Positions 5,637-30,887 of a DNA stretch of 32,000 nucleotides are shown here, in pieces. Under the pieces are notes generated by a model. It saw only the letters and a list, made by a program, of their open reading frames with translations. It made no database searches and was not told where the DNA came from. The number at the start of each line of letters is the position of its first letter. Position 1 is the first letter of the stretch. The position numbers and the translations under genes are program-made. This DNA comes from an uncultured Verrucomicrobiota bacterium (GTDB taxonomy: Bacteria; Verrucomicrobiota; Verrucomicrobiia; Limisphaerales; UBA8199), in NCBI GenBank assembly GCA_942493075.1, contig OW818681.1, forward strand, positions 4,156,964-4,188,963. Reading direction: 5' to 3'.

Positions 5637-7894
5637 AAGACGTTTGTTCTGTGTTTCAGCCAACCCGCGCTGGGGCCGCACGGGATGGCGTCCTTGTTGA
5701 AGTGCGTGGCGGTTCCCAGGAAGATCAAAGCGTATTCCGCACGAGAGTAGGCGACGTAATACTGCCGGACCATATCCATTTGGGCGCGTTCGCCTTCGGG
5801 CCTACGGAGAAAACTTCGGGCCGGATTGGCGGGATATTGAGAGAACAGTGTTTCGAGGCGATGACTCTTGCCGACCTCGGCGCCTTCCCCCATGTGGCCC
5901 ACGAAGACATACGGGAATTCCAATCCTTTGGACTGGTGCATGGTCATGATAGGCACCATGCCCGCCGGGCATATCACTTCATCGTTTTCCTCATCGTTCA
6001 TGCCCACATCCATGATGTAGGTGAGGAAGAGATGGTAGAATGAGTTTAACCAACCGCCGACCACTTCGCCCGGGTAGGTGCTGGAGGCTCGCATGGTACC
6101 GCGAGTGACATTGGGCCGTGCCAAACCAGTAGCCGGATCCAAGACAGGGGTGGAGTTGTAAGCCTCCAAAAGCTTGGTCAGGCGTGCGAAACGAACCCGG
6201 CGCACGGGGTCGTTCTGCCACGTGGAGAACGGTTCACAACTCATTAGGTAATAGGTCAACTCTTGCAGGTTGCAGTCGAAGTATTCACCGGGTTTCGCGA
6301 GGATGGCGGCGCGGCATTGGGCGACATAAGCGGTGAGGGCGGGGTTGGCGGCCGCAAGGGCGTCGTAGGTGGTGCGAAAATCCGCCTCAGCGGCTGGAAT
6401 AGAATTCTTGTTAGCCGGATCCTGGGCGTAACGGCGTTGGGGGTCCACGACTGCCAGAATGGCACCCAGCAAACCCTGAACCTCCTCCTGCTCCATGAAG
6501 GTTTTGTTGCGCGGGTTATAGACGGAGAGCCCCCGTGCTTGCAAAGCGGCAGCAAAGGGGCCGGCATTGCGAGGAGACTCTTTGGTGCTCTTGAGCAGGA
6601 GACAGCACTCGTTGGGATCGTTTACCTTGCCAGTGCTGATCAAGTCAGCGACGGTTTGAGCAAACAGATCGGCGACGTCGCCGAGTTTAGCGCCAACGAG
6701 TCTGCCGATCGCCGGATAGGTTTGAGGAATGAGCTTGCGAGCAACGACCGGAGGTTTGGGCGACCGCGCTCCGGGGGTCAGCATTAATGGGAATGCGGTA
6801 ATGTAGTCGTTGATGAAATCAACGATATCGGTATGGGAGCGGAAGTTATCAACCAGACTGTAGCGCGCAACCGTGGAAGGATTCAGGCCGAGGAACGCCT
6901 GACAGGCTCGATCGAACGTGACCATGCACTCGACCGAGCCGCCCCGGAAGCGATACATGGCCTGGTCATCGTCACCCACAACAACGAGATTATGAGGCGC
7001 GCGACGGGCGAGTTGGAAGTAAATTTCCTCCTGCATGGGGTTGGTATCCTGGTATTCGTCCACGAGGACCCACTGGATGCCCGGGTTGGCAGGGGATCCG
7101 TCGCCGGTGAGAAAGGACTGGCCCAAGGGGGTGCTGAGGAAGCTCAGGAAACGGCCCTGGAGTTGTGAGAAATCGCAACGATAATTGTTAAGCAGGTGCT
7201 TAACATATTCGTCGTAGAGATCGGCCAACCGAGCCAATTGTCCGCCGACCGCCCGCAAGCCCGTGACTGAAACGCGATCTTCAACCATGCGGTTGAGCAG
7301 CACAATCAGGGCACTGGTGGTATTCCAACGGCTGGGGGGGTAAGCCCTCGTAGGTTGCCATTGCAACGGAGTAAACATCCAAGGGAAGGCGCCCCAGAAA
7401 GTGATTTCAGCGGGAGCATTGGGTGCCTTGACCAGACTCATGTGTTCGCGGACAAAGAGCGCCTGCTCGAACTCATCCATGAGGCGGACGTTCTGATAAT
7501 TGGGCGCGCGGAATTCCTGCAGGAGATCGTTGGCCAATCCATGCAAAGTGCCGACGCGCAATTTGGAAACGTCGATCACCACCAAAGAGGGATCGGCAGC
7601 CACCAGCCGAGCGCGGTAGTTAAGAATGCGGTCTTCGAGATTCTTAGCAGCCTTTTCTGTGAAGGTAGTGACAAAAACAGATTCCGGCGGGACGCGTTGG
7701 GCTTGCAGAGGATCGCCACTGACGTAGAGGAGGCGAAGGACCATGACGGTAAGGACTTCGGTCTTGCCTGAACCCGGGCCGGCGAGGACCCAGGCCGGGC
7801 CTTGCGGATGGCGGACAATGGCCTCCTGCTGGGGCGTGAGTTGTTTGGTTGCACCAGGCGGGTAGAGAATGGCGAGGAGTTCGGTGATGGTCAT
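5633..7894 (-). CDS. UvrD/Rep-like superfamily 1 DNA helicase, 753 aa
   Basis: LTPQQEAIVRHPQGPAWVLAGPGSGKTEVLT (Walker A), WVLVDEYQDTNPMQ (Walker B), VVGDDDQAMYRFRGG, TMHQSKGLEFPYVFV. Confidence 0.95.
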   Translation of the reverse strand: MTITELLAILYPPGATKQLTPQQEAIVRHPQGPAWVLAGPGSGKTEVLTVMVLRLLYVSGDPLQAQRVPPESVFVTTFTEKAAKNLEDRILNYRARLVAADPSLVVIDVSKLRVGTLHGLANDLLQEFRAPNYQNVRLMDEFEQALFVREHMSLVKAPNAPAEITFWGAFPWMFTPLQWQPTRAYPPSRWNTTSALIVLLNRMVEDRVSVTGLRAVGGQLARLADLYDEYVKHLLNNYRCDFSQLQGRFLSFLSTPLGQSFLTGDGSPANPGIQWVLVDEYQDTNPMQEEIYFQLARRAPHNLVVVGDDDQAMYRFRGGSVECMVTFDRACQAFLGLNPSTVARYSLVDNFRSHTDIVDFINDYITAFPLMLTPGARSPKPPVVARKLIPQTYPAIGRLVGAKLGDVADLFAQTVADLISTGKVNDPNECCLLLKSTKESPRNAGPFAAALQARGLSVYNPRNKTFMEQEEVQGLLGAILAVVDPQRRYAQDPANKNSIPAAEADFRTTYDALAAANPALTAYVAQCRAAILAKPGEYFDCNLQELTYYLMSCEPFSTWQNDPVRRVRFARLTKLLEAYNSTPVLDPATGLARPNVTRGTMRASSTYPGEVVGGWLNSFYHLFLTYIMDVGMNDEENDEVICPAGMVPIMTMHQSKGLEFPYVFVGHMGEGAEVGKSHRLETLFSQYPANPARSFLRRPEGERAQMDMVRQYYVAYSRAEYALIFLGTATHFNKDAIPCGPSAGWLKHRTNVL

Positions 7895-8184: not shown

Positions 8185-10050
8185 TCAAGCTCCATTCGTG
8201 CGTGTGATGAGCCCAAGGTTAGCAAGCGATTGTGTCACAGTCGCCAGCGTGCATACCTCGAAACCAGCTAGTTGGAATGCTTGCTTTTCCTCGGGGCCGT
8301 AACCTCCTTCTAAGACGGCGATGCCTTGCTTCACTTGATTGGATTTGAGTCCATCTGCCGATAGGCGGTAGCGGGCCATGGAAAGGTGTGCGCAAAACTC
8401 CCGCGTCTTATGTCCACAATCGGCTGGCGCCTTCATGCCTGATATGAAAACAGGGATTAATTGGTCCGCCCTGCGGACGCAAAGGCTTACGCGCCAGTTT
8501 CCGGCCTGGTCGCTTTGCGAGCAGTCCGTCACGAGTGTCGGTATTTCCTCGTCCTCTAGAACCGATACGCCATCTGCCCAGCGGCACTTCTTGAAGATAG
8601 CGCGCACTAGTTCTTCTAAGGGATTTATTGCCGATTGTGGGCCAATAATCCTGTGCGTCTTGCGGAGGAGGTAGCTCGTCCTCAGGTTCTGGGTGTCGAG
8701 GTCTTTAGGAATCAGACGGGCGATTGCGCGCAGCAGTAGGGCATATCGTGGCGCACCCTTTATGGGGCGTCTGTTGCTGTAGATCCCACGAATGTCATTG
8801 CGCGTTGCTTTTAGGGTGGCGTCTGAATTGTTGATCGCGGTTACGAGAGGGTAGGTGCCTAGGCCAGTCGCTTCGATTAACATCTCCGCAAACTGATTGT
8901 ACTCGTATGACGGTGTTACGGATGTGTACTGTGCCCAGAGTGCCTTAGCAGAAGCTTGGCGCAGCTTTGTGATGTCCTTTACGGAAGGTGCGCTTTTGAT
9001 TGCTTCCAGTGCCTCTAGGACTTGGGCCGAAGCGGCGAAAAGTGTGCGGGTGCGATCAAGGGCTTCCGAGAGAGCCTCGTGGTTGACCCCCAGGGTGTTT
9101 GCCTTCCGGGCAGCGAGGAAGAGTTCGAGGTCCTCTGAGGGGTGGGCAACAGTTTCGCCTGCCATGCCCTCCTCTATATGCTTGATGAGAAAGGCAAATT
9201 GCCCGTTTCTGTCCTCAATAGGAAGGCGGTGCAGAGCCTTTAGTACCTTGAGGTGGTTTGGGTCTTTAACTTCTATGGTCCATGCTTCTAAGGTCCTAAC
9301 AATCGCGTCGCATGAACCGAGTTCTGGGAACAGGAGACTTACGAGCGCGATTTGGAGCATCGCATTACGCAAACGCTCAAAGTTGTTCGACAAGTGAGTA
9401 TGGAGTTGAATTTTTGAGCAGAAGAGTCTCTCCGACGTCCAAAGGTCGAGTTTAGCATTTTTCGGGAAGGCCGTCGGAGTTAGTGGTGTGCGGATCGAGG
9501 CACGCAGTGGGGCGAGCGAGCCAAGATCGGTTTTGATGCTACGGAGCGCTGCGTGAATCTTATCTGTGCCGGTTACGCGTAGCGACTCGGCCCTGGATAG
9601 GTCTGCTTGTAGTTTCTGGTGGTTGAATAGAACGCATTCGTCGAACAGTTCGCGAAAGGAACGAAGAAAGTCGGGGTACCAACCGGCAGCGCGGTATTCG
9701 TTGCCTGAGAATTCTGCCTCAAATACTACGCATGTGCTCGTTGATTTTGGAATATAGCGTTTGAGGTCACACAGTTCTGAAACGGTTCTCCAAAATTTCG
9801 CGTGACTGGTCTCTTTGCTGTCCCAGTAGCAGACATGAAGGAAGTTCGAAGACGTTGTGTCGACAAGGAAGTCCGGGATAGTATAGATAAGCCGCTTATA
9901 CTGGTGGGGCTTGTGGCAGATTGTCGCGTGCTTGCAGAGGGATTGGCAGTTATGGCGCTCGCGATTGGGCTCGTACTCAATATTTCTGGTGTAAATGCCC
10001 TCGAGCGCCAACCACGTCAGCGCTTCGTAAAAATCAGCTCTGAAGCTCAT
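8185..10050 (-). CDS. Uncharacterised 621-aa protein; N-terminal Cys-rich stretch and possible restriction-endonuclease-like motif
   Basis: Long intact ORF. N-terminus has CQSLCKHATIC then IPDFLV..(x)..FLHVCYWDSKETSHAKFWRTVSELCDLKR, loosely like the PD..x..D/E-x-K arrangement of some REase-fold enzymes. No confident family. Confidence 0.7.
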   Translation of the reverse strand: MSFRADFYEALTWLALEGIYTRNIEYEPNRERHNCQSLCKHATICHKPHQYKRLIYTIPDFLVDTTSSNFLHVCYWDSKETSHAKFWRTVSELCDLKRYIPKSTSTCVVFEAEFSGNEYRAAGWYPDFLRSFRELFDECVLFNHQKLQADLSRAESLRVTGTDKIHAALRSIKTDLGSLAPLRASIRTPLTPTAFPKNAKLDLWTSERLFCSKIQLHTHLSNNFERLRNAMLQIALVSLLFPELGSCDAIVRTLEAWTIEVKDPNHLKVLKALHRLPIEDRNGQFAFLIKHIEEGMAGETVAHPSEDLELFLAARKANTLGVNHEALSEALDRTRTLFAASAQVLEALEAIKSAPSVKDITKLRQASAKALWAQYTSVTPSYEYNQFAEMLIEATGLGTYPLVTAINNSDATLKATRNDIRGIYSNRRPIKGAPRYALLLRAIARLIPKDLDTQNLRTSYLLRKTHRIIGPQSAINPLEELVRAIFKKCRWADGVSVLEDEEIPTLVTDCSQSDQAGNWRVSLCVRRADQLIPVFISGMKAPADCGHKTREFCAHLSMARYRLSADGLKSNQVKQGIAVLEGGYGPEEKQAFQLAGFEVCTLATVTQSLANLGLITRTNGA

Positions 10051-10564: not shown

Positions 10565-12355
10565 TCAGAATTCCGGAATTTGCACAGGCAACGGCACGCC
10601 CTTGTAGCTCGCCGAAAGTATGGCCTGACCGATCCCCATGACCTGCAATTCCCGCTTGAACGGGAAGATGTCGTTGCTGGCCGTGTGGACAGCGGCCTGG
10701 CGTTCGTCCTCGTTGCCGAGGGCCATGGTAATCTCCGTGTTGATCTGGCTGAGGATGCCTTGGTCAATTTCGGTGACCTGCTGCGAAACGACAGTGAGGC
10801 CGAGGCCGAACTTCCGGCCCTGGCGGGAGATGTCGCGGAAGACGGAACCGAATTTCATCCGGGCCGGATTCAAAATGGAGGGAGCTTCCTCGATGATGAT
10901 ATTGACGGCAGGAAGATCGTTGATGTTCCGCAACGTGCCGTCCGGCCCACGGTAAGGTGAATCCGGCGCGGACAACCGTTCCTTCAGGATGTTTTTCAGG
11001 GTGTCCTGCAGGGGAATATGGCGGTCAATCTCACCTGGTTGGCCGTTTGCGCCGACGAAACTTGGCCAGTCACGCGCGCTCTTGAGAGCCTTGCGAAGCG
11101 CAAAGATGGTGCGGGCAACGACGGTGGTCAGCAGAAACTGTTCGGTCTCGGTCATCAGAGACGTATCCACATCCAGCACCCGCCCACGTTCTAGTGCGAG
11201 GACGATGTCCGCCAACGAGGAACTGTATTGCTGGGCGTTGGGGACAAGGTTGGACCGGTTGCCGCTCAGGAAACCCAACCGGCGGTTGATGCCTGCCAGT
11301 GAGGTTTTGTGAATCACGTTGTCATCAGCGACGACATCGCCATTGAGCACACCGGAGATCCAGTTCTCACCCTGCATATCGCCTATGATCTCGGCGGCAG
11401 CAGACATGATATCGGTGAACTCCATGATGGAGATGATATCCTGCGGGGTGATGTCGCGCCGGTGGAGGCGAACGCGACGGCCGTGGGTGCCGATGACGGT
11501 ATCGGCCTGGATGGCGGTTTCATCACGACAGGAAAGGTAGAAGAAGGGTTCGACAAGGCCGGTGCGTTGCTCGGGGTTCATAGCCGCCACGATGCGGGTA
11601 ATGCCGCCGGGGGAACCGGGTTTCCATTTGGCGAACTCATCGTGCGGGTCCACGGCGAACAGTGAAACCAAACGGTCCTTGGGTCCCCACTGAGCGCGGG
11701 CCGTGCCGAACAGGCGGAGGTTATTGGCGTAGATGCTATCAATGAGCACCATGAGGTTGTTGCTCTTGCCCGTACCCGTCCGACCAAAGATGCCAAGGTG
11801 GTGCGCGAAGTATTCGCCGGGAATTGAGATCCTGACAGTGGACAAGGAATGCTCGCCAGCTAGGAGATTGCCGATGAAAACACCCGTGCCGAGTTGGGAT
11901 TGCAGGATAGCGGCGAGGCAGAGCTCCTGGCGTTGGGCGGCCTGCGGGCCGCCGAAACCAACCTTGTAAACTTTGGTGAGGTGGGCCGGAAGTTTGCGCG
12001 GCGTGCGGAAATGCCAACGGCCGTTTTCATCCACTTCGGCATAGCCAAGCAGAGAACCGGTAAGGCGAAGCAATTTATCGCGGTCGAAGTCATCCGCGTA
12101 AAAGGCATCGGCGAGAGAAATCTCGTTCTTGGCCATGAAGTCCATGTCCTCATCGCGGCGAAGGACGTTGGCGTATTCCGTCATGCGGAACAGGTAAACG
12201 CGGTCGCCGCCACGGTCGGACGGGATGAGAAAAAGGTCGCCGATAGAGGTATCGAGGTTGCGGGCGAATACCGTTATCTGGGTGGTAGAAGCCATGGCCA
12301 GCACGCCGAAAAACTGGTCCTGCGCCAACGTTTGGGTGAGTTCCTGGTAGGTCAT
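10565..12355 (-). CDS. herA: HerA-like ATPase/translocase (HerA/FtsK superfamily), 596 aa
   Basis: HLGIFGRTGTGKSNNLMVLIDS (Walker A), VNIIIEEAPSILNP (Walker B with EE), GLGLTVVSQQVTEIDQGILSQINTEITM, N-terminal HAS-barrel-like region. Directly downstream of a NurA-like gene. Confidence 0.92.
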   Translation of the reverse strand: MTYQELTQTLAQDQFFGVLAMASTTQITVFARNLDTSIGDLFLIPSDRGGDRVYLFRMTEYANVLRRDEDMDFMAKNEISLADAFYADDFDRDKLLRLTGSLLGYAEVDENGRWHFRTPRKLPAHLTKVYKVGFGGPQAAQRQELCLAAILQSQLGTGVFIGNLLAGEHSLSTVRISIPGEYFAHHLGIFGRTGTGKSNNLMVLIDSIYANNLRLFGTARAQWGPKDRLVSLFAVDPHDEFAKWKPGSPGGITRIVAAMNPEQRTGLVEPFFYLSCRDETAIQADTVIGTHGRRVRLHRRDITPQDIISIMEFTDIMSAAAEIIGDMQGENWISGVLNGDVVADDNVIHKTSLAGINRRLGFLSGNRSNLVPNAQQYSSSLADIVLALERGRVLDVDTSLMTETEQFLLTTVVARTIFALRKALKSARDWPSFVGANGQPGEIDRHIPLQDTLKNILKERLSAPDSPYRGPDGTLRNINDLPAVNIIIEEAPSILNPARMKFGSVFRDISRQGRKFGLGLTVVSQQVTEIDQGILSQINTEITMALGNEDERQAAVHTASNDIFPFKRELQVMGIGQAILSASYKGVPLPVQIPEF

Positions 12356-12358: not shown

Positions 12359-13549
12359 CTAGATGCCAGTCATGTGAACCTGCTCGGGGTCTTCGAGAAA
12401 TGCGCCCCGCAGCAACCCTTCCTGCTGGGCGTACTGAAGGAGCAAATCGCGAGCGGTTTTGCGCTCCTGTTTGGTGAGGCTGGCGCGCCGATGGGCGGCG
12501 TGCATGGGATACGGGTAACCGTAACTGCGCACCTCATGACAGGTGAAGTCCAGCTCCTCAAAGAACCGTGCTTCTTTTTCATCGTCGCCGGCCAAATGGG
12601 TCTGCCACCAGGCAGCGTCCACGTCCACGCGCATGGGAAAGGCCGTGGCCTCGAACTTGAACAGGTAAGACACACTGAGTTTGGGTGGGATTTCCCGGTC
12701 TTTGAGGAAAGAGAGGGGCGTGTCACCTAAGGCCTCGGAGGGGAGACGCAAAAACCAGTGCGATTTGAGACCGTGTTTATCGCGGGCCAGCCGACCGATG
12801 AAATCGCCGTTGGGGATGTTGTGTGATTTGCACAACGCGACGATGCCGGTGTTTTGTTCGTTCGCCTTGGTGATCAGGTAGCGCTTCAAGAGTTCAGGCA
12901 GATAAGGGGAATCGCCGAGAAGGAAATAGACCAAGGACGTATCCATGATCAGATACCTGGGTTTCTGCTGAAGGAGATGAATGGCCATACCCAATTCCGC
13001 CAGCGAACGGAGGAGGTAAGCGTGCGTCGCAACCTGCGAAGCATGAGAGATGGCGAAGTTGGCCCAAGTCACCTGCGACGGCTTGAGCGACTTGCCAAAC
13101 TGAGAGTAAACGGCGCAATAGTCCGACTCTTTGACCAATTCTTCTAGGCCCAGTCCGACGAGCGACTCTAAAAATGTTTTGTAAGCATCGGTCAACGCCT
13201 TGGGTTGATCCTGCAAAACAATGTGGCGTTTCAGCAGTGGCCCAAGACCACCCACCGCCGCCATCTTGCTTTGACGGGCACTCTGGGTATCGTAGGTGAC
13301 GCCGGCCGCGGTGGCGAAATGAACGAACACATCATCTTGTTGGATGATGGGGAACTCTCCTGAACCATCCACGGCACAAATGCGAAAATCCTGATCGAGG
13401 GTCGTGGTGTGCCGATACGGTCGGATGCGCTGAGCAAGAGTGTTGATCTCCTTATCCGTGGGTTTTGCGCCCTCGATGGCTCGCTTGAACTGCAGAATTG
13501 CTGCTCGCGAGGAGTCCAGCAAAGCCCGGTCTAGGAGGTCGAAGTCCAT
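12359..13549 (-). CDS. nurA: NurA-domain nuclease-like protein, 396 aa
   Basis: FRICAVDGSGEFPIIQQDDVFVHFATAAGV matches the NurA VDGSG motif. YLIMDTSLVYFL and adjacency to HerA support the call. The gap to the HerA start is 3 bp. Confidence 0.8.
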   Translation of the reverse strand: MDFDLLDRALLDSSRAAILQFKRAIEGAKPTDKEINTLAQRIRPYRHTTTLDQDFRICAVDGSGEFPIIQQDDVFVHFATAAGVTYDTQSARQSKMAAVGGLGPLLKRHIVLQDQPKALTDAYKTFLESLVGLGLEELVKESDYCAVYSQFGKSLKPSQVTWANFAISHASQVATHAYLLRSLAELGMAIHLLQQKPRYLIMDTSLVYFLLGDSPYLPELLKRYLITKANEQNTGIVALCKSHNIPNGDFIGRLARDKHGLKSHWFLRLPSEALGDTPLSFLKDREIPPKLSVSYLFKFEATAFPMRVDVDAAWWQTHLAGDDEKEARFFEELDFTCHEVRSYGYPYPMHAAHRRASLTKQERKTARDLLLQYAQQEGLLRGAFLEDPEQVHMTGI

Positions 13550-13559: not shown

Positions 13560-15776
13560 TCAGTTTGGTGTTCCTGTGAGTTTGCTGAAAAGTCGGAAGA
13601 ACCACCAGGTATTGTGAAACCCCCTCCGCCGGTTGCGATTGTTGCGGCGGAAGATCACAACGTCGATACCGGTGGATTTGCAAACGGCGCAGGGACAATT
13701 GCGCCAGGGTGCATCTTCAAGAAGGCGGCGATAATGAGGCTCGTTGCGAGGGTCGCCCCCCATGAGTTGGTCATATGCGACCACCTGTTTGAGGGTCGAG
13801 TCGATGTCGAGTTTGCCTTGATCAAAAGCGCGTAACGCCTGAAGTGATTTCTGCTCCTCCTTGCGCAGTCGTTCGAGGGTCCACCCTTTCTGAGTTAACT
13901 TGGATGCCTTGGCCGTGAACGAATCGCCACCCTCGCGTTGGAGTGGAGGCACGCGAAGTGCCGCGTAACGCCATTTCTCCTCCAACTCTGCTTCTTCGCC
14001 ATTGCTGGTTTTGGGATTGAGCGTGGCGATAAACCGGTCCACGTCACCAACGTAGTAGTTTGAAGTGGCAGACAACCACGCCTGGCGGAGAAAACGAGCG
14101 CTATCAATGCTGTTCACCCCGGCATCAGAAAAGGCCGTGATGGCTTCAGGGCGGGCGACGCCGAAAAGGTGAATTTGAACGCCCGGTTTACGAATACGAT
14201 TTACGCCTTCGAGCACCGAAAGGATCTCGGTTGTCTTCGAGCGGACCAATCCGCCAAGAGCAATGTATTTGTATCCCATGTCCTGCTGCTGCTTGAACAT
14301 CTCGACTTGGGATTCGACGTCGTATCCCTGACAGCCAGCTATCGGAGTAAAATTGGATCCGCGCTTTTTGTGGGATTGGATAAAATCTTTGGCGTTATCG
14401 AGCGTGATTTTCCAGCGGCGCTTGCCTTCTGTTAAGTCATCTTCCTCATACGCTGCGAGGTGGTCGCGTTTCTCAAATAGGTCACGCGGATAGGTCCGCC
14501 CCTTGACCAAAGGGAGGCCTTCTTTCGTCAGACGTTCGAACTCATCTTTGCTGATGCGCTCTTCGCCACCGCCGGGTTTGAGGATGGCATAGACGGGGCG
14601 ACTCAGATGGGCGGGAATGATAAGGTGATCGATGGAGACGCCGTAGTCGAAATCCAATGATTCATAAAAATCCAATGTCTCCTCGGTCTCGTAGGGCGGG
14701 ACTTCCTCATCAATATAGTTGAATGCGCCACAATCGCCCATGACCGGGAAGTTGCGAGGCACGCGCACATGACGATGGATGCCAATCTTGCGGATGCGCT
14801 CTTTCTTGGTCTGATTATCTTCGATGACAGACTTGCTTACGAGAATGCCATCGTAGTTGGGCGATGGATAAATTTCATGGGCGTAAACATCATGAACGTA
14901 GGGGTCGCGGCCCTCTGTGATGCCGTCGCAGAGAAAATCATAATCCGGATCAACGCGGTCATCCCACTCGGGAATGAAGTATTTCATCCGAGCCTTGGGG
15001 CGGGGAGTGAAGAAGGTGAAGCGCTGGCGCTCCTGCTCCACCAGGTGTGGCGCTTTGGAGGTTTTGACAGATTCGCTTTTGGGTTGATCGAAAAACGCGA
15101 GGACATCGGTAGCCGGGTCGCGCAACTTCTGGGGCAAGTGCGGATCTCCAGCGAGCAACTTCAACAGGCGCGCCGCGAGTTCGCCTTTGAGCCCAACCAG
15201 CCCGCAGGAAAAGCGTTTGGCCTCCGGGTTGGAGAGGGTGACGACGCGGAGGTTGGGCAAGCGCGGAATCTTCTTGGCCGGTCCCTGACCGCAGAATAAA
15301 AGGGTGAGGCCACCGAACTTCACACTGGCATCGAGTTGGCAGGCTTGCAGGTAATTGTCGCCGAGCAAGATCAGTCCCAGATCGTAGGCCTGTGCGACGG
15401 TGTTTCGGAAATCCTGCGGGATATTGAGGGTATCGGCCCAGGAGCGGATCTCTTTGCTCCCCATGGTGGCAAAGGTGCACTCGTAGGGGGCGATCTTGCG
15501 ATTCTCGGGGATTAGGCCGTAGCCGGCGCTGAGAATGAAGAGTTGATGGTTGATTGTTGAGAGTTGAGAGACAGAACTGAGAGACTGGATGCCGCGCATG
15601 AGGCGGACGTGCTGCTCACCAGAGTACAGTTGCCCTGCGGGGGTCAGAAACTGCTTAAGTTCCCGTTCCTTTTGCCGCACGTGCGCAGGTCCCTTCTGAA
15701 AATCCGCGAGGCTGATGGAATTCTCAGGCGCATGGACCTTTTCGCCTGTGCAGGATGTAATGATTAGTAGCCTCAT
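13560..15776 (-). CDS. dpdA: DpdA-like (tRNA-guanine transglycosylase superfamily) 7-deazaguanine DNA transglycosylase candidate with N-terminal DUF6884/YaaA-like domain
   Basis: N-term MRLLIITSCTGEKV...LYSG...FILSAGYGLIPENRKIAPYECTF. The TGT-like core has FPVMGDCGAFNY (cf. SDSGGFQ), YKYIALGGLVRSKT (cf. GGL(A/S)xGE), GVNSIDSARFLRQAW (candidate nucleophile Asp), and a zinc-like cluster WRNCPCAVC...RRRGFHN (CxCxxC...H). The ORF extends to a TTG at 15785; ATG at 15776 is preferred. Confidence 0.85.
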   Translation of the reverse strand: MRLLIITSCTGEKVHAPENSISLADFQKGPAHVRQKERELKQFLTPAGQLYSGEQHVRLMRGIQSLSSVSQLSTINHQLFILSAGYGLIPENRKIAPYECTFATMGSKEIRSWADTLNIPQDFRNTVAQAYDLGLILLGDNYLQACQLDASVKFGGLTLLFCGQGPAKKIPRLPNLRVVTLSNPEAKRFSCGLVGLKGELAARLLKLLAGDPHLPQKLRDPATDVLAFFDQPKSESVKTSKAPHLVEQERQRFTFFTPRPKARMKYFIPEWDDRVDPDYDFLCDGITEGRDPYVHDVYAHEIYPSPNYDGILVSKSVIEDNQTKKERIRKIGIHRHVRVPRNFPVMGDCGAFNYIDEEVPPYETEETLDFYESLDFDYGVSIDHLIIPAHLSRPVYAILKPGGGEERISKDEFERLTKEGLPLVKGRTYPRDLFEKRDHLAAYEEDDLTEGKRRWKITLDNAKDFIQSHKKRGSNFTPIAGCQGYDVESQVEMFKQQQDMGYKYIALGGLVRSKTTEILSVLEGVNRIRKPGVQIHLFGVARPEAITAFSDAGVNSIDSARFLRQAWLSATSNYYVGDVDRFIATLNPKTSNGEEAELEEKWRYAALRVPPLQREGGDSFTAKASKLTQKGWTLERLRKEEQKSLQALRAFDQGKLDIDSTLKQVVAYDQLMGGDPRNEPHYRRLLEDAPWRNCPCAVCKSTGIDVVIFRRNNRNRRRGFHNTWWFFRLFSKLTGTPN
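15541..15590 (-). repeat. Degenerate TTGA(G/A)AGT-type heptad repeat inside the dpdA-like gene
   Basis: agttgatggttgattgttgagagttgagagacagaactgagagactggat, read in frame as IQSLSSVSQLSTINHQL. Confidence 0.7.
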
Positions 15777-15991
15777 GAACAACAAAACAACACATTCTCA
15801 AGAACTTAGAGTTACATAGAGTATTTGTGCAGGAGGCACAAGGATAAGCGGGCGAAGACCCGTAAAACTAGTTAACCGAAACAAGGATGATTAAGGAAGC
15901 TGGTTGGAGATCGCAAGGAGAATAGAATCGTTTGCTGACATTCACCTACCAGAATGGCCCGACAACGACGAAATAGAAGAAACAAATGCGT

Positions 15992-16663
15992 CTAGGGCTG
16001 TAGAAGCTTATTTTGGTCCAAAAGTTTCTGCAAAATGCGAGTTGCTAACTCGGTAGCAGGATCAAACGAACACGGCAGGGTTCCCGCAGCGGCGCAACCC
16101 GCAACGTCCTCGGGGCGGTAGCGAACCCCACCATTCTTTTGCAGCCGCTGGACGTGCTCTTCAGAGACCCCATCTTGCAGGAGTGCTTCGCATATGGATT
16201 TAACCCATTCCGCGTCACCCTCTCTTTCTGCGGGCCAATCTTGGAGAACTGCCAGATCAATTCCGGCATATCTGAACACCGCCAAAACGAACGTTGCACA
16301 TGTAAGACCGACTCCGGTGTCACCCAAGAGCCACCGTCCGGTTTCATCATCGAAGCAGTCGGATGGCGCGCTGAAGCCGTAAGGCATACCAGCGCGATTG
16401 GCTTTAAGAACCTGACGACAGCGGACGGCTACTTGCAGAGCCCTTACTGTGTGGATTGGGGGATCTACCCAAAGGTAATGTGGCTTGGGATTCCGCTCAC
16501 GGAGGTCATGATGCCATGCCAAGTCAGCAAGTTTGATCTCATCCTTTAAATCTGTTTGGAACAGGATTCCTAAATGCTGCTGGCCATTTCCCATTAAGGC
16601 AATGGCTACTGCAGCATTCCGAATCTCATTAAATCCACGCTCCTCCTGTGAGTAGACCCGCAT
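15992..16663 (-). CDS. Uncharacterised 223-aa protein, possible cysteine-hydrolase (NlpC/P60 or YiiX-like) fold
   Basis: PYGFSAPSDCFDDETGRWLLGDTGVGLTCATFVLAVFRYAGIDL resembles a Cys active-site helix ([D/N/T]C[S/T/A]xFV), followed by VRYRPEDVAG. Weak motif evidence only. Confidence 0.5.
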   Translation of the reverse strand: MRVYSQEERGFNEIRNAAVAIALMGNGQQHLGILFQTDLKDEIKLADLAWHHDLRERNPKPHYLWVDPPIHTVRALQVAVRCRQVLKANRAGMPYGFSAPSDCFDDETGRWLLGDTGVGLTCATFVLAVFRYAGIDLAVLQDWPAEREGDAEWVKSICEALLQDGVSEEHVQRLQKNGGVRYRPEDVAGCAAAGTLPCSFDPATELATRILQKLLDQNKLLQP

Positions 16664-16687
16664 TTTGCTTGATACTCCTGTGCTGGC

Positions 16688-17362
16688 CTAGGGCTCAAGC
16701 CCTGTGAGCAAATCATCATCCCACTCCCTGCGCTCTTTGATGAGAGACTCAGCTTGCCGGAACAAGTGCGCGCGCGATGGCAGCTTCGATTTTGCGGGTA
16801 GCGTCGCGGTCAACAAACCCACAAGCAAGTTGGTGGAGAGTGTAGCATAATTCGTGTTTGCAACTATAGAATCCACGTCGGCAAATCGACCCCTACGAAA
16901 GAATTGATCTATGCGTTCATAAAGCAGGTCCAAAGCCGCATGCACGCGACCCTGTTTGTCTAGCCTGATCATCGGCTCAAAGAACTGGCTCCCTGAACGG
17001 TCCGGCGTTTCCGTGCAAACCATCGAGCGCTTAGGTAAATACCTGCGCTCGTACCCCAACTCCAAGAGGCGTGAGGCGTGGAAAATGTTGTGAGACAATT
17101 GTTTTGCGCAGAAGCCGAAGTCTTCATCCTTGGTGAAGACCTCAAAGACATCTTCATCTGGGAGTGCGCAAGTGCAAAATTGGGAGAAAACAGATAGGTA
17201 ATTCTCCTTAGCGGCCTGCTGTTGACGTCCCGGATTTAAGAAAACGACACGGCCAGTGGGTTGTGTTTCTCCGGAACGAGTTCTTCTGGTGGAATCCCGC
17301 CAGAGATCTTTGACAGACAAAGGAAAAAATTCTCTTGTGTAAGATATCGGAACCTCATTCAT
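16688..17362 (-). CDS. Conserved-looking uncharacterised protein, 224 aa from ATG at 17362
   Basis: MNEVPISYTREFFPLSVKDLWRDSTRRTRS... with GGAGG (cctcc at 17373-17377) about 11 nt upstream. Tightly packed with the flanking genes. Confidence 0.65.
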   Translation of the reverse strand: MNEVPISYTREFFPLSVKDLWRDSTRRTRSGETQPTGRVVFLNPGRQQQAAKENYLSVFSQFCTCALPDEDVFEVFTKDEDFGFCAKQLSHNIFHASRLLELGYERRYLPKRSMVCTETPDRSGSQFFEPMIRLDKQGRVHAALDLLYERIDQFFRRGRFADVDSIVANTNYATLSTNLLVGLLTATLPAKSKLPSRAHLFRQAESLIKERREWDDDLLTGLEP

Positions 17363-18053
17363 TGTTACCTTGCCTCCCTGGAATAATTGTTGGGATTTTT
17401 GCCTTAGCTTGGAGTTCACTCTGAGCAGTCCTCGATTTAAGCATTGCGCGCTCGCACTGCTTCATGAGGAGCTGGATGTCATCCTCGTCAATCGAGAGGC
17501 TGAGGACGTGGTCTCCTTGGGGGTCGTCGTAACGGACAATGAGCGTGTGCGAAATGACCGTGCCACGCAGCTGTGTGGCGTCGTCACTGAATACAGGACG
17601 GATATCAGTGAGAATGCGGGCGCGCTGGAGGAGTTCAGCATGCTCATACGAAAGATCGAGGGCTTTGGCTGAGAGATAAATAATCTCTGAGTTGAAGAGG
17701 TTCTTAACTTCTCGCTCTACACCTTTCCAAGCCTCAAATTGCTCGTGTGTCCAACCAGACTCAGACGGGTCCAACGCAAGTCGGAGAGCGCCGAAAATCT
17801 GATTAGGGTTGATATTCAGATTCCTTAGCACCCCGTGCAGTGCTAGCAATTGGCGAAGGATGGGCTCACTTGCAGACCCCGAGGCGGGCCCTAGAGCAGC
17901 GGCGATCGCCTCCTGCAGTTTACCGGGCGAAACTGGCTCTTGAGGCAAGCTGTTGAGGTGTTGAGTCAGCCTTTGGACGGTTTCTGAGCCAAGTTCAGAA
18001 ATCAATGCCAAATCGGCCTTATGCTGCGCTTGCAGCCTAATCTGGGGTTCCAT
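17355..18053 (-). CDS. Uncharacterised protein, 232 aa; likely first gene of the dpdA-herA-helicase operon
   Basis: Intact ORF MEPQIRLQAQHKADLALISELGSETVQRL...TVISHTLIVRYDDPQGDHVLSLSIDEDDIQLLMKQCERAMLKSRT. It overlaps the next start. A 244-bp intergenic gap lies upstream. Confidence 0.65.
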   Translation of the reverse strand: MEPQIRLQAQHKADLALISELGSETVQRLTQHLNSLPQEPVSPGKLQEAIAAALGPASGSASEPILRQLLALHGVLRNLNINPNQIFGALRLALDPSESGWTHEQFEAWKGVEREVKNLFNSEIIYLSAKALDLSYEHAELLQRARILTDIRPVFSDDATQLRGTVISHTLIVRYDDPQGDHVLSLSIDEDDIQLLMKQCERAMLKSRTAQSELQAKAKIPTIIPGRQGNNE

Positions 18054-18297: not shown

Positions 18298-19137
18298 CTA
18301 ATACCTATCCTCGTTCAAGCTCCTGTCGAGTTGCGCTGAGGCAACTATGGCGAAGGCTGAGTGATTGTGGATGCTTTCCTGGTTAACGGCGCGGACTTCG
18401 AACCAGGTGATGCGTTTGTCTTTCTTTAAGAGGTGGGCGGCGTTGCGGACGACGTCCTCGACGAAGACTGGGTTATCGAAAGCTTGCATGGTGACGTGGC
18501 GTTCGTCAGGACGTTTTAGAAGGGGATAGACGGGAGCGGATGCGGAACGTTCGGCGATATCAATGAGTTCCTCGATCCAGATGAGTTCCCATAGACCGTT
18601 CGTGCGCTTGGGACGGACCGTGACGGTGACCTGTCCCCGCTGATTGTGGGCACCGTAGTCACTGATTTCTTTGGAACAGGGGCAAAGGGTGGTGACTGGC
18701 ACTTTGACACGAAGAAGGAAGTCGTCCGTCTTTCCGTTGGACTGGCCGATAAAGGTGCAGCGGTAGTCCATAGGTGCCTGGGACCCAGACACGGGTGCGG
18801 TGCGGGTTAGGAAGTATGGAAATTCGACCTCGATGTGGGCGGCTTCCGAATCGAGATGCTGCTTAAGATCATGGAGGATGGCAGGCAGGGTTCGCATGGT
18901 TACCTCGCCCTGGTGCCGGCTGAGAATTTCGAGGAACCGGCTCATGTGGGTGCCTTTGAAGTGGTGCGGGAGGCTTACCGACATGGAGATAGTGGCGACC
19001 GTTTGTTGCTTTTGATTCTGACGGTCGAGGACGGCAATAGGAAAAGAGAGGTCGCAGATGCCAACGTTATCTATTGGCACGCCGCGGCGGTCTTTGGTTT
19101 TCTGGATGTCGGGTAACTGGCGAGCGGGAGATTTCAT
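18298..19137 (-). CDS. folE2: GTP cyclohydrolase IB (FolE2/MptA family)
   Basis: LPDIQKTKDRRGVPIDNVGICDLSFPIAV, TMRTLPAILHDL, VKVPVTTLCPCSKEISDYGAHNQRGQVTVTVR, MQAFDNPVFVEDVVRN, EVRAVNQESIHNHSAFA. Confidence 0.95.
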   Translation of the reverse strand: MKSPARQLPDIQKTKDRRGVPIDNVGICDLSFPIAVLDRQNQKQQTVATISMSVSLPHHFKGTHMSRFLEILSRHQGEVTMRTLPAILHDLKQHLDSEAAHIEVEFPYFLTRTAPVSGSQAPMDYRCTFIGQSNGKTDDFLLRVKVPVTTLCPCSKEISDYGAHNQRGQVTVTVRPKRTNGLWELIWIEELIDIAERSASAPVYPLLKRPDERHVTMQAFDNPVFVEDVVRNAAHLLKKDKRITWFEVRAVNQESIHNHSAFAIVASAQLDRSLNEDRY

Positions 19138-19140
19138 GAA

Positions 19141-19596
19141 TCAATCCCAGTATTCGGCCCAGGAGCAACTGGTTTCCCAAAGGCGAACTTTCACTACGCG
19201 AACCGTGGAACGTAAAGGATAGGGTGCGGCGGGGTCGGCGGCGTAAGTCGCGAGCTTGGCTTTGACGACGTCATGGATTGTCTTGGCCATGACTTCGGTA
19301 GTGGGATCCATGCATTCAAAAGCCACCACGCGATCACCGAACGCAGCCTTCAGGGGTGTGAAGTTGGGGTCCTGAGTGTTGACGCAGATCGCGTGATCGA
19401 GTGTTTTAAGATAATCGTTAAGGCTGGCTTTGAGAGCCTTGAAATCACAGACCATCTCGTTGGAATCGAGCGTGTCCGCTTCAATTACGACTTCAACTTT
19501 GCGGCTGTGGCCGTGGGGGAATTTGCACAGGTCGGGGTGCTTTGAAAGCATGTGTCCGTTCTCGATTTCGAAGGTTTTACAGATGCGGTATGGCAT
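19141..19596 (-). CDS. queD: 6-carboxy-5,6,7,8-tetrahydropterin synthase QueD-like
   Basis: ICKTFEIENGHMLSKHPDLCKFPHGHSRKVEVVIEAD (Cx3HGH), MVCDFKALKASLNDYLKTLDHAICVN, VRLWETSCSWAEY. Confidence 0.93.
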   Translation of the reverse strand: MPYRICKTFEIENGHMLSKHPDLCKFPHGHSRKVEVVIEADTLDSNEMVCDFKALKASLNDYLKTLDHAICVNTQDPNFTPLKAAFGDRVVAFECMDPTTEVMAKTIHDVVKAKLATYAADPAAPYPLRSTVRVVKVRLWETSCSWAEYWD

Positions 19597-20289
19597 TTAG
19601 GTTCCTCGTGTGTGGCCAAAGAGTTCGACGTGAAGACGGTTGCAATAGCGGTAGCCATGGCGTTTGCAGACGTCCAAAAGGGTTTCGGCTCGACCGCGAA
19701 GCACGGCTGTTGATGTGCCCTCGGGCATGAGCAGGATTTTTGCTGGCGGGACTTTTTGACGGAGGTCGTGCAGGAGGGATTGGATTTCCTGAACATCCGA
19801 GGCGGAGTTGACTACGAACTTGAGCTGATATGTGTAGTGATCGAGCCACTCGGAGATTACGGCTGGGTGCCGCCTTAGGTTTTCATGCTTCTCGCGCCAA
19901 GCCGTCGGCAGCCGGTTATCCGGAGCTGAGTTGCTGAGCTTTGGACTGAGTGACGCGAGATCGCAGATGATGCCATTCGGCGGGACGGTTGCCGCCGTCT
20001 CGATGGTTATATGTTTCCCTGCCTGGCGAAGAGCTGCTGCGAGTTCGTGAATTCCCTTGGCGATCATCGGCTCGCCGCCGGTTAGAACGCAATGCTGAGC
20101 GGGGAAAGAATCCACCTTGCGGAGAATTTCGTCCGGAGCCATGTCTTTGCCTTCCGGGTCCCACGAGGCGTACATGGTGTCGCACCAGTTGCAGCGGAGG
20201 TTGCAACCGGAGGTCCGAATAAAAACGGACGGGACGCCCGTGAGTTCGCCTTCGCCCTGGATGGAATAGAATATCTCCGATATAAGCAT
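19597..20289 (-). CDS. queE: 7-carboxy-7-deazaguanine synthase (radical SAM) QueE
   Basis: MLISEIFYSIQGEGELTGVPSVFIRTSGCNLRCNWCDTMYA gives radical SAM Cx3Cx2C, with VLTGGEPMIAKGI. The track ORF extends to 20562, but the ATG at 20289 fits QueE. Confidence 0.95.
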   Translation of the reverse strand: MLISEIFYSIQGEGELTGVPSVFIRTSGCNLRCNWCDTMYASWDPEGKDMAPDEILRKVDSFPAQHCVLTGGEPMIAKGIHELAAALRQAGKHITIETAATVPPNGIICDLASLSPKLSNSAPDNRLPTAWREKHENLRRHPAVISEWLDHYTYQLKFVVNSASDVQEIQSLLHDLRQKVPPAKILLMPEGTSTAVLRGRAETLLDVCKRHGYRYCNRLHVELFGHTRGT

Positions 20290-20290
20290 T

Positions 20291-20995
20291 TCAGGCCCCG
20301 ATGGTGGGAGCAGGCTTAGGCGGCAGTGGAGATGTTTCTGCGTAGGTGGTTGGGTCAGAGAGACCGGCGAGCATGAACGCCTCCCGACGCTCGACGCAAG
20401 TGCCGCAGGTGCCGCAGTGTATTGCTCCGCCCTTGTAGCAGGACCAGGTTTTGGAAAAATCGACGCCGAGCTCGTAGCCGCGGCGGGCGATTTCCGCTTT
20501 GGTGAAGCGAATGAAGGGGCGGAGAATCTGGATTTGGGCGTAGGTTCCAAGGCGGATGGCATCGGCCATGGCTTTCATGAAATCCTCGCGGCAGTCTGGA
20601 TAGATGGCGTGGTCTCCGGCGTGGGCAGCTATGACGAGGCCCTGGGCCTCAATCGATTCGGCAAACCCGCCAGCAATTGAGAGCATGATGCCGTTGCGAA
20701 AGGGAACAACGGTCTGCTTCATCGTTTGCTCCTCATAGTGACCGTCGGGGACAGTGCCACCTGACTTGAGGAGGTCAGATTTGAAAAGCTGGGAAACGAA
20801 GTCGAGTTGGATGGTACGATGGGAGATTCCGAGTTGGTCGCAGTGGTAGGCAGCGAAAGGGATCTCCCTGTGGTTGTGCTTGGAACCGTAGTCGAAGCTG
20901 AGGGCGCCGACAACTTGATAGGCCTGATTGGCTTCGTAGAGGGCGGCAACCGAGTCCATCCCACCGCTAACAAGAACTACGACTTGGGTTTTCAT
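20291..20995 (-). CDS. queC: 7-cyano-7-deazaguanine synthase QueC
   Basis: MKTQVVVLVSGGMDSVAALYEA (PP-loop SGGMDS), GALSFDYGSKHNHRE, VPFRNGIMLSIAGGFAESI, C-terminal CYKGGAIHCGTCGTCVERREAF zinc site. ATG at 20995. Confidence 0.96.
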   Translation of the reverse strand: MKTQVVVLVSGGMDSVAALYEANQAYQVVGALSFDYGSKHNHREIPFAAYHCDQLGISHRTIQLDFVSQLFKSDLLKSGGTVPDGHYEEQTMKQTVVPFRNGIMLSIAGGFAESIEAQGLVIAAHAGDHAIYPDCREDFMKAMADAIRLGTYAQIQILRPFIRFTKAEIARRGYELGVDFSKTWSCYKGGAIHCGTCGTCVERREAFMLAGLSDPTTYAETSPLPPKPAPTIGA

Positions 20996-20999
20996 CGCA

Positions 21000-21440
21000 T
21001 CATGAATGGAGAGTAGTGACCGGGTCTGGGTGCTCTGCAGTGACGGTAAGGGATAAGCCTCCTCGCGGAACAAATTTGCCTTCGATCTTTATGCGCCGTG
21101 GGCGGCAAGCCTTAACCAGGTCGTCGAGGACGCTGTTTATAACCTGCTCGTTGAACGAGTGCACGTTGCGGTACGAGGACAGGTAGAGCTTGAGGGACTT
21201 GGTCTCGATGCAAAGCTTGTCGGGGATGTAATCTACGAGAATCTCTGCGAAATCGGGCTGGCCGGTGACCGGGCAGAGGGAGGTAAAATCGGGACAGTCG
21301 AGACGGATGGAATAGTCGCGGTTCGGTTTGGGGTTTGGGAACGTTTCGATCGTGGCCGACTGCGGAGACTTGGGGAACGCCGCCTCGGAGTTTCCAAGAA
21401 GCGTCAGACTGGCGTATTTCTTATTTCGGGACCGTTTCAT
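21000..21440 (-). CDS. queF: NADPH-dependent 7-cyano-7-deazaguanine reductase QueF (type I, short)
   Basis: LDCPDFTSLCPVTGQPDFAEILVDYIPDKLCIETKSLKLYLSSYRN (catalytic Cys plus the ExKSLKLY QueF motif), AEHPD. Likely ATG at 21440 (146 aa). Confidence 0.92.
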   Translation of the reverse strand: MKRSRNKKYASLTLLGNSEAAFPKSPQSATIETFPNPKPNRDYSIRLDCPDFTSLCPVTGQPDFAEILVDYIPDKLCIETKSLKLYLSSYRNVHSFNEQVINSVLDDLVKACRPRRIKIEGKFVPRGGLSLTVTAEHPDPVTTLHS

Positions 21441-21593
21441 TTCGTGGCCGTCAGCATGGCATTTTTCTTCGCAAGAGAAAATTGAAATCGCGCGAGGAAT
21501 GGAGGGTGGGCATACGGGCGGGAGGAGGGGGCAGTGCGACAGGGGGACGGGGGTAGGGTGTGACATTTGCTGGCATAACCGGTAGGATCGGGT

Positions 21594-22649
21594 ATGCGAC
21601 AGAAGCGACTCGGCCCAAAACAGGCGGCACGCGGGAAGAATGAGGGGGATTTGTGGGCGCATGGTTACGGTCGGGCGGCGATGGAACGGATGATGCGGAT
21701 TCATCGAAAGATCGAGGATCGCGAATACCCGAACTGCACCAAGATGTCGGCGGAGTTTGAAGTCAGCGTGCGGACGCTGAAGCGGGATATCGAGTTCATG
21801 AGGGATCGGTTGGAGTTGCCGATCGCTTTTGATGTGCCGAAGAATGGCTACTTTTTCACCAAGTCGGTGCCGCATTTCCCGAGGGTTCCCCTGACTGAAC
21901 GGGAGATTGTGGGGTTGTTCGTAGCGCAAAAGACGATCGCGCAGTATCAGGGGACTTCACTTCAGCCGGTTCTGGATTCCGCTTTCCGGAAAATGACGGC
22001 GCAATTGGATGATAGCGTGCAGTTCTCGCTTGATGGGGTGGATGAGGTGATGTCGATCCGTCCGTTTGCACCTGGGGATGCGGAGCTGGAGACGTTTGAG
22101 ATCCTGACCCGAGCGGTTCGCGAGCGGCGCGTGGTGCGGTTTGTGTATCGGAAGCATGGGGAGCAGAAGCAACTGCAGAAGTGTGTGCATCCGTATCGGG
22201 TGGCTTACGTGAATAATCAGTGGACGCTTTTTGCGCGTGACCCTAAGGCGGGTGCGCTGGTGCGGAAGTTCATCCTGGCCCGGCTGAGCAAGCCGGAGTT
22301 GTCGGCGGAAAAGTTTAGCGTTTCTGAGCGGTTCGATCTGGACAAGGAGTTGAGTGGCAGCCTGGGGGTGTTCAAGGGGAAGGATGATTACGAGGTGGTG
22401 GTGGAGTTCGATGCCTGGGGTGCGGATGATGTCCGGGGCCGGCTCTGGCATCCGAGCCAGGAGTTGACCGATCACCCAGGGGGCGGGCTTACCTTAAAGA
22501 TGCGTTTGAACAGTTTGGAGGAGGTGGAGCGGTGGGTGCTCGGTTATGGGAGGCATGCGACGGTTGTGGGGCCGGCGGAGCTGAGGGAGAGGGTGCGGGG
22601 TGTGGCCAGCGATTTGGTGAAGAGGTATGGGGGAAAAGCTAAAAGCTGA
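21594..22649 (+). CDS. WYL-domain transcriptional regulator (DeoR/YafY-like HTH plus WYL), 351 aa
   Basis: RMMRIHRKIEDREYPNCTKMSAEFEVSVRTLKRDIEFMRDRLELPIAFD (HTH_11-type), AVRERRVVRFVYRKHGEQKQLQKCVHPYRVAYVNNQWTLFARD (WYL-like), then the WCX region. Confidence 0.92.
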   Translation: MRQKRLGPKQAARGKNEGDLWAHGYGRAAMERMMRIHRKIEDREYPNCTKMSAEFEVSVRTLKRDIEFMRDRLELPIAFDVPKNGYFFTKSVPHFPRVPLTEREIVGLFVAQKTIAQYQGTSLQPVLDSAFRKMTAQLDDSVQFSLDGVDEVMSIRPFAPGDAELETFEILTRAVRERRVVRFVYRKHGEQKQLQKCVHPYRVAYVNNQWTLFARDPKAGALVRKFILARLSKPELSAEKFSVSERFDLDKELSGSLGVFKGKDDYEVVVEFDAWGADDVRGRLWHPSQELTDHPGGGLTLKMRLNSLEEVERWVLGYGRHATVVGPAELRERVRGVASDLVKRYGGKAKS

Positions 22650-23542: not shown

Positions 23543-23660
23543 AGGGGTGTGGTGACTGGATTGACCGGATTGACGGGATTTAAGGGCTCGAGCGTAGGAA
23601 CACATGAGAGAGTTGAGCGGGGAGGCGGCTTGCGAGACCGCCTCCCCTGCCCCGTTGCGT

Positions 23661-24116: not shown

Positions 24117-24135
24117 AGAGGGGATTGGTTAGGGG

Positions 24136-27240: not shown

Positions 27241-27246
27241 ACAGGC

Positions 27247-30881: not shown

Positions 30882-30887
30882 AGCGCG

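Follow-up and report, generated by a model that had tools for sequence, protein, structure and literature searches.

A 32,000-nucleotide (nt) stretch of contig OW818681.1 (assembly GCA_942493075.1), from an uncultured Verrucomicrobiota bacterium and called the window below, carries a five-gene operon, queF-queC-queE-queD-folE2, upstream of a gene encoding a fusion of DpdC-like and DpdA domains. We propose, with a probability of roughly 0.6, that the operon is the precursor cassette of a mobile Dpd-type island, in which preQ0 would go into DNA and QueF would serve tRNA queuosine. In this model, FolE2, QueD, QueE and QueC would convert GTP into preQ0, and QueF would convert preQ0 into preQ1. The DpdA domain of the fusion would swap genomic guanines for preQ0, and the fused DUF6884 domain would then most likely hydrate the nitrile, giving the amide base ADG as in canonical Dpd. 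A protein of 396 amino acids (aa) and a HerA-like ATPase would stand in for DpdB, and a UvrD-family helicase and a PD-(D/E)XK nuclease would form the restriction side. QueF, probably the ordinary free-base preQ0 reductase of the lineage, would channel some of the preQ0 into preQ1, destined for tRNA queuosine through a tgt encoded elsewhere in the genome.

To our knowledge, no bacterial systems other than Dpd islands write 7-deazaguanines into their own DNA, and preQ0 and its amide are the sole such bases found there so far. A first-pass annotation of the window had recognized a complete preQ0 pathway plus QueF in one operon, and had raised the possibility that the DNA base is of the preQ1 type or that the operon also feeds tRNA queuosine. 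Its factual premises stand and its tRNA-queuosine reading is the one favoured here; its preQ1-type DNA base is not. One of those premises, that canonical dpd islands carry only preQ0 genes, agrees with published accounts (PMC5699537, PMC12235509). A dpd supply cassette containing queF is undescribed in the literature searched (PMC5699537, PMC10164549, PMC10516641, PMC12235509) and is a modest novelty.

The que operon and its QueF

The five genes lie on the minus strand, fill positions 18298–21440 and are separated by gaps of 0–4 nt. The first, queF (21000..21440; 146 aa), encodes a unimodular NADPH-dependent preQ0 reductase (preQ1 synthase). The start assigned to it, at 21440, is correct, since 146 aa is also the length of its homologues and of the identical database protein, P0126. 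It is followed by queC (20291..20995; 234 aa), which encodes preQ0 synthase and matches TIGR00364 with 184.5 bits against a cutoff of 150.3 and Pfam QueC with E=1.7e-62. The next gene, queE (19597..20289; 230 aa), starts 1 nt past the queC stop and encodes a radical-SAM 7-carboxy-7-deazaguanine synthase with a Pfam Radical_SAM match and the CxxxCxxC motif (CNLRCNWC); its top NCBIfam matches are all QueE models, yet each is under its equivalog cutoff. The product of queD (19141..19596; 151 aa) is a 6-carboxytetrahydropterin synthase (Pfam PTPS, E=1.4e-27) that carries CxxxHGH (CKFPHGH) and scores 78 bits against TIGR03367, under the cutoff of 89. Finally, folE2 (18298..19137; 279 aa) encodes GTP cyclohydrolase IB (NF010200, 287.6 bits against 215; Pfam GCHY-1, E=2.2e-94). 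These family matches and the tight spacing bear out the assignment of a complete preQ0 pathway plus QueF to a single operon. The reported lack of tRNA-pathway partners is also correct: the open reading frames (ORFs) scanned in the window include no queA, queG, queH or bacterial tgt, the sole TGT-family gene being that of the DpdA fusion (13560..15785), and no tRNA genes were found in the window.

QueF scores 163.8 bits against the NCBIfam preQ(1) synthase model TIGR03139, above the equivalog cutoff of 86.9, matches Pfam QueF with E=1.4e-29 and aligns over its full length with B. subtilis QueF (PDB 4F8B; HMMER, 134.5 bits, E=3.3e-38). In this alignment, B. subtilis Cys55 (the thioimide nucleophile), Asp62 and the substrate-binding Glu97 have Cys56 (in SLCPVTGQPD), Asp63 and Glu98 as their counterparts; the catalytic Cys, Asp and Glu are found in 148–150 of 150 representatives of the QueF family. 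The motif for binding NADPH, E(S/L)K(S/A)hK(L/Y)(Y/F/W), is present as ETKSLKLY, with a Thr at its second position as in 17 of the 150 representatives. Because it has both the catalytic triplet and this motif, the QueF of the window is predicted to be a reductase of the free preQ0 base, typical of its family, and not a QueF-L amidinotransferase (archaeosine synthase). QueF-L enzymes have no such motif and work on preQ0 that is already part of a nucleic acid; this identity was also discarded on score, with 25 bits to PDB 5JYX against 134 to QueF.

One residue that departs from B. subtilis QueF is the equivalent of His96, which is usually reckoned a catalytic residue; in the window it is Asn97. 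Across the 150 representatives, this position is held by His (82), Tyr (27), Asn (22) or Met (14), and judging from this spread His96 does not define the family. Asn occupies the position in at least 117 of the 120 closest QueF homologues, core-genome copies included. An active site altered specifically for dpd (His96 to Asn) was therefore rejected, Asn being lineage-wide and the position variable throughout the family.

The region upstream of queF (21441..21593, minus strand) is a probable promoter or leader, and ~45 nt before the queF ATG are conserved between the window, a cassette locus (L081) and a core-genome locus (L084). Control of the operon by a preQ1 riboswitch was considered and dropped because no Rfam aptamer was found upstream of queF: the window and six related loci gave no match to any Rfam family, preQ1-I, -II and -III included, at the gathering threshold, and region 21380–21700 gave none even at E<=10. 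The operon resembles the queCDEF (ykvJKLM) tRNA-queuosine operon of B. subtilis in having the same enzymes in one operon and a unimodular QueF, but it differs in its leading queF, in its inclusion of folE2, in the lack of a detected preQ1 riboswitch and in its setting, mobile defence DNA beside a DNA transglycosylase gene.

Cassette and core-genome copies in Verrucomicrobia

More than 120 protein clusters are 72–100% identical to the QueF of the window, and the named ones are all Verrucomicrobial. The genomic context was fetched for eight QueF relatives. The five-gene queF-C-E-D-folE2 cassette recurs in L081, in L184/L185 (on 21 contigs) and in L194 (with an integrase upstream), where, unlike in the window, it is followed by DpdE, DpdF and DpdG. 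In L083, with folE2 truncated (141 aa), it accompanies a short DpdA-like TGT and DEAD helicases. Another contig, P0128, has WYL, ARPP-1 and HSP70-like genes upstream and ends after queD. The queF-bearing cassette is thus found beside three different Dpd architectures, and its settings are all marked by integrase, WYL, ARPP-1 or defence genes. The five-gene form (four genes, queF-C-E-D without folE2, at the P0002 locus, which encodes the closest relative of the fusion, 82% identical) was encountered only next to Dpd genes or within mobile or defence DNA.

Shorter blocks occupy core-genome settings: queF-queC-queE near folP, cdaA, glmM, infC and rpsU (L084–L089), and queF-queC near glycoside hydrolases (L195–L198). 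Verrucomicrobia keep queF directly before queC, as does the cassette. The core blocks share with the window a leading queF, the upstream segment and 75–85% identity in QueF, QueC and QueE; unlike the window, they come without queD, folE2, dpd or mobile-element neighbours. In a tree of QueF, QueC and QueE (541 columns), the core block is nested within the cassette clade with 99% bootstrap support. Because of this nesting, core and cassette copies are taken to be one orthologous family; the tree does not settle the direction of transfer between them.

Among cassette copies, the ratio of non-synonymous to synonymous substitution rates (dN/dS) of queF is 0.045–0.07, equal to that of queC, queD and folE2, with dS saturated. 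Because the ratio matches that of its neighbours and synonymous sites are saturated, queF is a long-maintained, functional member of the cassette rather than decaying baggage. Among the best 120 matches (down to 72% identity for QueF and 79% for QueC), the cassette proteins form the sole QueF and the sole QueC cluster from the 6,534,777-bp source contig. The cassette may thus be the only close que copy in the source genome, which would fit a tRNA role for QueF. On the orthology of QueF, QueC and QueE with the core blocks, and with no second close queF or queC among those 120 matches, the suggestion that the operon also feeds tRNA queuosine is favoured, and QueF most probably serves tRNA queuosine or precursor balance.

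The DpdC-DpdA fusion and the base entering DNA

The fusion gene (13560..15785, minus strand; 741 aa) lies 2.5 kb downstream of the operon and encodes a predicted DNA-guanine transglycosylase. Its DpdA part scores 419 bits against NF041059 (cutoff 200), matches the PADLOC DpdA model with E=2e-114 and aligns with PDB 7UI4 both by HMMER (258 bits) and by Foldseek on an AlphaFold model (E=8e-28, TM 0.78). The N-terminal ~200 residues match PADLOC DpdC (E=2.8e-10, residues 5–178) and Pfam DUF6884 (E=3e-9), the domain carried by canonical DpdC proteins (PMC12235509), a DUF328/DUF6884 family, and contain the DUF6884 motifs CxxxK (CTGEK) and LSAxxG (LSAGYG) (PMC11701544). The window thus shares with the Dpd system of Salmonella enterica serovar Montevideo (dpdA-K; dPreQ0, dADG) a DpdA orthologue, a DUF6884 domain, a helicase and a nuclease downstream, and a genomic-island setting. 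PreQ0-pathway genes also lie alongside ~27% of dpd islands (PMC12235509), as they do here. In contrast to the Salmonella system, a single protein contains both DpdC and DpdA, queF is part of the supply operon, and DpdB and DpdD-K were not detected, the 396-aa, HerA-like, 621-aa, UvrD and PD-(D/E)XK proteins being present instead.

We surveyed 80 loci with related fusions, using the proteins of the window as queries. Both the DUF6884 and the DpdA domain are present in all but three of the 120 best matches of the fusion; 270 relatives were confirmed among GTDB species representatives, and a metagenome scan with the fusion protein found few close ones. QueC is encoded near the fusion in 27 of the 80 loci and QueE in 25. 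Where coordinates are listed, the que genes lie directly upstream of the fusion gene and in the same direction, at distances of ~10 nt (L001), ~40 nt (L008) and ~160 nt (L011). On these counts and positions, supply of the DpdA precursor from an adjoining que operon is the norm in this family.

QueF is a much less regular companion. It has a match in five of the 80 loci, four of which pass TIGR03139: L006 (Competibacter), L011 (a Verrucomicrobium), L016 (Hymenobacter) and L029 (Pontibacter). It is absent from 23 of the 27 que-bearing loci, and also from L168, which encodes a fusion 72% identical to that of the window and has que genes that begin at queC (queC-E-D). Linkage of queF to the fusion is therefore recurrent, occurring in three phyla, but far from obligate. 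Some of the linked genes are themselves unusual. In L016 (6799–7452) and L029 (5787–6305), a divergent QueF (96–103 bits) is transcribed away from the queD-queC-queE-DpdA operon, has Gln at the His96 position and may have an N-terminal extension. In Laceyella tengchongensis (L050, 12735–13220), a QueF-like protein encoded next to a DUF6884-DpdA gene has lost the catalytic Cys and scores 73.9 against the TIGR03139 cutoff of 86.9; it is either a decaying or a repurposed QueF.

From models of the solved DpdA of S. Montevideo with preQ0 or preQ1 in its pocket, it was proposed that the loop GGMVPL excludes preQ1 through Val209, which blocks its aminomethyl group, whereas preQ1 and queuine transglycosylases have small residues or Gly there (GGhsG/sG, against GGhsbb for the preQ0 type) (PMC10164549). 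In the window, the aligned loop is GGLVRS: Val is kept, a bulky, family-invariant Arg comes next, and there is no Gly; a small Ser comes last, however, and Pro is absent. The loop is the same in loci with queF (L006, L011, L016 and L029; GGLVRT, GGMVRT) and in loci without it (L001, L004 and L090; GGLVRS, GGLVRT), and the short DpdA beside the L083 cassette has GGMVPR. Only one DpdA residue tracks queF, Q499, ~12 residues before the loop (6/6 proteins with queF against 1/23 without). It was taken as chance, because the queF-positive set represents only four independent lineages, tested over ~700 columns. The fusion partner bears on the base as well. PreQ1 has no nitrile. Known DpdC acts on dPreQ0 (PMC10164549), hydrating its nitrile to give dADG. 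The pocket loop, the DpdC-type partner and the queF-less loci all point to preQ0, and then probably ADG, in DNA, none of them decisively.

Several observations weigh against the proposal that preQ0 goes to DNA and preQ1 to tRNA. The purifying selection on queF beside three Dpd architectures and its recruitment in three phyla suggest that it matters to the island, and supply of tRNA does not obviously explain why islands would retain and recruit it. The base entering DNA, in this organism and in the whole DpdC-DpdA family, is read from sequence. The pocket rule comes from modelling on one solved DpdA, in which Pro-Leu follow the Val where Arg-Ser do here, and is uncalibrated, as the preQ1-inserting phage DpdAs (Dp-1, phiSM) are too divergent to align. 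Absence of queF at a locus is no proof of a preQ0 substrate, as hosts usually encode queF elsewhere. Finally, 2.5 kb with three ORFs parts the operon from the DpdA gene in the window.

In a rival reading, a preQ1-type base marks the DNA: QueF would make free preQ1, a DpdC-DpdA fusion of shifted specificity would insert it, and the DUF6884 domain would bind or further process the site. The bacterial chromosome would then be marked by dPreQ1 or a derivative as a restriction-modification-like self signal supplied by the mobile queF cassette. Much about queF would suit this, as the gene is intact, first in the operon, kept under strong purifying selection in mobile cassettes and associated with three Dpd architectures, and a bona fide QueF also stands beside the DpdA family in Competibacter, Hymenobacter and Pontibacter. 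Phages provide the precedent. Clusters in Streptococcus phage Dp-1, Cellulophaga phage phiSM, Vibrio phage VH7D and Halovirus HVTV-1 combine, as the window does, a complete FolE-to-QueF set with DpdA, and the DNA of these viruses carries preQ1 or derivatives (PMC10516641, PMC6884629). Clustered phage queF predicts preQ1-type DNA, the VH7D DpdA2 inserts preQ1, and a switch of DpdA from preQ0 to preQ1 has been proposed to have arisen several times in phages (PMC10516641); Dp-1 even matches the window in layout, from queF at the start to dpdA at the end. The QueF of the window, however, is the ordinary one of its lineage, found in core contexts too and sharing 75–90% identity with chromosomal QueFs of Verrucomicrobia. 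No phage match exceeds 59% identity, for which reason a phage origin of queF was rejected, and the DpdA belongs to the bacterial type and is joined to a DpdC-type domain whose substrate in the known system carries a nitrile. The Arg-Ser pair may make the backbone less rigid than in the Salmonella enzyme, yet the loop is identical in relatives with and without queF, no residue column convincingly splits the two groups, and queF is missing from L168 and most other que-bearing loci. Moreover, dPreQ1 has not been detected in bacterial DNA (PMC10164549). No indicator examined supports the preQ1-type base, the linkage of queF being non-obligate, the pocket Val retained and the DpdA fused to a DpdC-type domain, and we consider preQ1 in DNA, and with it a dPreQ1-marked chromosome, to be quite improbable.

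An unlikely explanation, although a somewhat better one than preQ1 in DNA, is that QueF acts as an overflow valve. The cassette would raise the output of preQ0 for DNA marking, and QueF would hold free preQ0 low and preQ1 sufficient, thereby sparing the host tRNA transglycosylase from receiving preQ0 in place of preQ1; it would be selected because it lowers the cost of the island to the host, not as a maker of the DNA base. Bacterial TGT can take preQ0 as well as preQ1. Such a role would explain why, in mobile cassettes, queF is held by purifying selection as strong as that acting on the preQ0 genes, and why QueF has been recruited repeatedly to the DpdA family, in three phyla, with the pocket loop unchanged; it is entirely inferential, and most related islands manage without queF. 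Least probable of all is mere adjacency, in which a housekeeping operon for host queuosine precursors has had defence genes accumulate beside it with no functional tie. The 2.5 kb with three unrelated ORFs between folE2 and the DpdA gene, a weak terminator-like hairpin 3' of folE2, the presence of the same gene block in core contexts and the single close copy among the best 120 matches are what such a history would leave. Against this, the flanks of the window are mobile or defence DNA (RadC, DUF6573, a WYL regulator and Tiamat TmtA) rather than core genes, the core blocks hold only queF-queC(-queE) whereas the longer form turned up only in Dpd, mobile or defence settings, and que genes lie directly upstream of the fusion in 27 of the 80 related loci.

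Under our preferred reading, a precursor cassette with QueF serving tRNA, the cassette would show that defence islands can capture the native operon of a lineage whole, and the island may even become the main source of tRNA-modification precursors in the genome, a result of more modest value than the first bacterial genome with dPreQ1 that the less likely reading would provide. In either case, with a recurrent mobile cassette that yields preQ1 as well, the use of preQ1-type DNA bases by bacteria, as by some phages, can be tested concretely and cheaply, and the cassette shows how a metabolic branch point is shared between a defence island and the synthesis of tRNA queuosine.

Flanking genes and the remaining island

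Between folE2 and the fusion gene, three minus-strand ORFs of unassigned function (15992..18053; 232, 243 and 223 aa) have no Pfam, NCBIfam, PADLOC or PDB match, one weak match to a PHROG of unknown function, and no counterpart in any related locus surveyed. This 2.5-kb stretch looks like a local insertion; no repeats were found bounding it. At other loci, the junction between the que genes and the DpdA gene holds a TmtA-like gene (P0002 locus) or a Tag-like glycosylase gene (L168), and because the P0002 locus carries its TmtA-like gene at this same place, the junction seems to be an insertion hot spot. In two Dpd architectures (L168, 9177–10022; L194, 13141–13986), this Tag-like protein, of ~281 aa, is encoded where the que cassette gives way to the dpd genes; it weakly resembles 3-methyladenine DNA glycosylase I (Tag; NF007678, E=1e-6 to 2e-5). 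An ORF at the same position in L184 (4149–5009) has no NCBIfam or PADLOC match. A second DNA glycosylase within a base-exchange system is suggestive.

Downstream of the fusion gene, all on the minus strand, lie the genes for its conserved 396-aa partner (12359..13549), which has no family or PDB match, for the HerA/FtsK-like ATPase (10565..12355; 596 aa; Pfam DUF87 and HerA_C, PADLOC HerA models), and for a 621-aa protein (8185..10050) that also has no family or PDB match. L001 has a homologue of this last protein (512 bits) in the corresponding place, which in the P0002 locus and L168 is taken by ORFs of similar size with no match. They are followed by genes for the UvrD-family helicase (5633..7894; 753 aa; Pfam UvrD-helicase, E=1e-44), the probable restriction-side motor, and for the PD-(D/E)XK nuclease (4695..5681; 328 aa; Pfam PDDEXK_1, E=2e-17), the probable effector. 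No PADLOC, Pfam or NCBIfam match to DpdB, the ParB/DndB-like ATPase partner, or to ParB was found in the window, nor were the restriction genes dpdD-K detected there. In the survey, the 396-aa protein is encoded next to the fusion in 16 of the 80 loci, always with a HerA-like gene; HerA-like genes are present in 20, and the UvrD and PD-(D/E)XK pair in 18–21, with UvrD scores of up to ~600 bits. The fusion, the 396-aa protein, the HerA-like ATPase, a ~600-aa protein of unassigned family, UvrD and PD-(D/E)XK recur together across many phyla (L001, L004, L008, L011, L013 and L168) without DpdB or DpdD-K. This set looks like an undescribed Dpd-type system, and it differs from the HerA/TGT 'BRC' system, which has PglZ, DUF6079, STAND and DUF4007 proteins (PMC12839542).

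On the other side of the operon, a divergent plus-strand gene (21594..22649; 351 aa) encodes a helix-turn-helix (HTH)-WYL-WCX regulator (Pfam WYL, E=8e-13; WCX, E=3e-17). L081 and L082 have a homologue (272 bits) on the upstream side of the cassette, where the P0128 contig has a WYL-WCX gene. At these loci, other genes intervene between the regulator and queF, namely ARPP-1-domain genes (L081, 9100–9897; L082, 698–1687; P0128 contig, with an HSP70-like gene in addition), and there the regulator may belong to an ARPP-1 module rather than to the que operon.

The two ends of the window have their own character. At positions 97–4692, a gene for a 1531-aa sacsin/NOV_C protein matches the PADLOC model of Tiamat TmtA nearly end to end (1498 bits); it is a defence gene of its own where the island ends. 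At the opposite end, RadC and DUF6573 genes and many small ORFs of unassigned function extend from 23078–25246 on to 32000, with a strong GC skew. The region 23078–32000 looks like the leading or anti-restriction part of an integrative element, and the whole window is probably mobile DNA.

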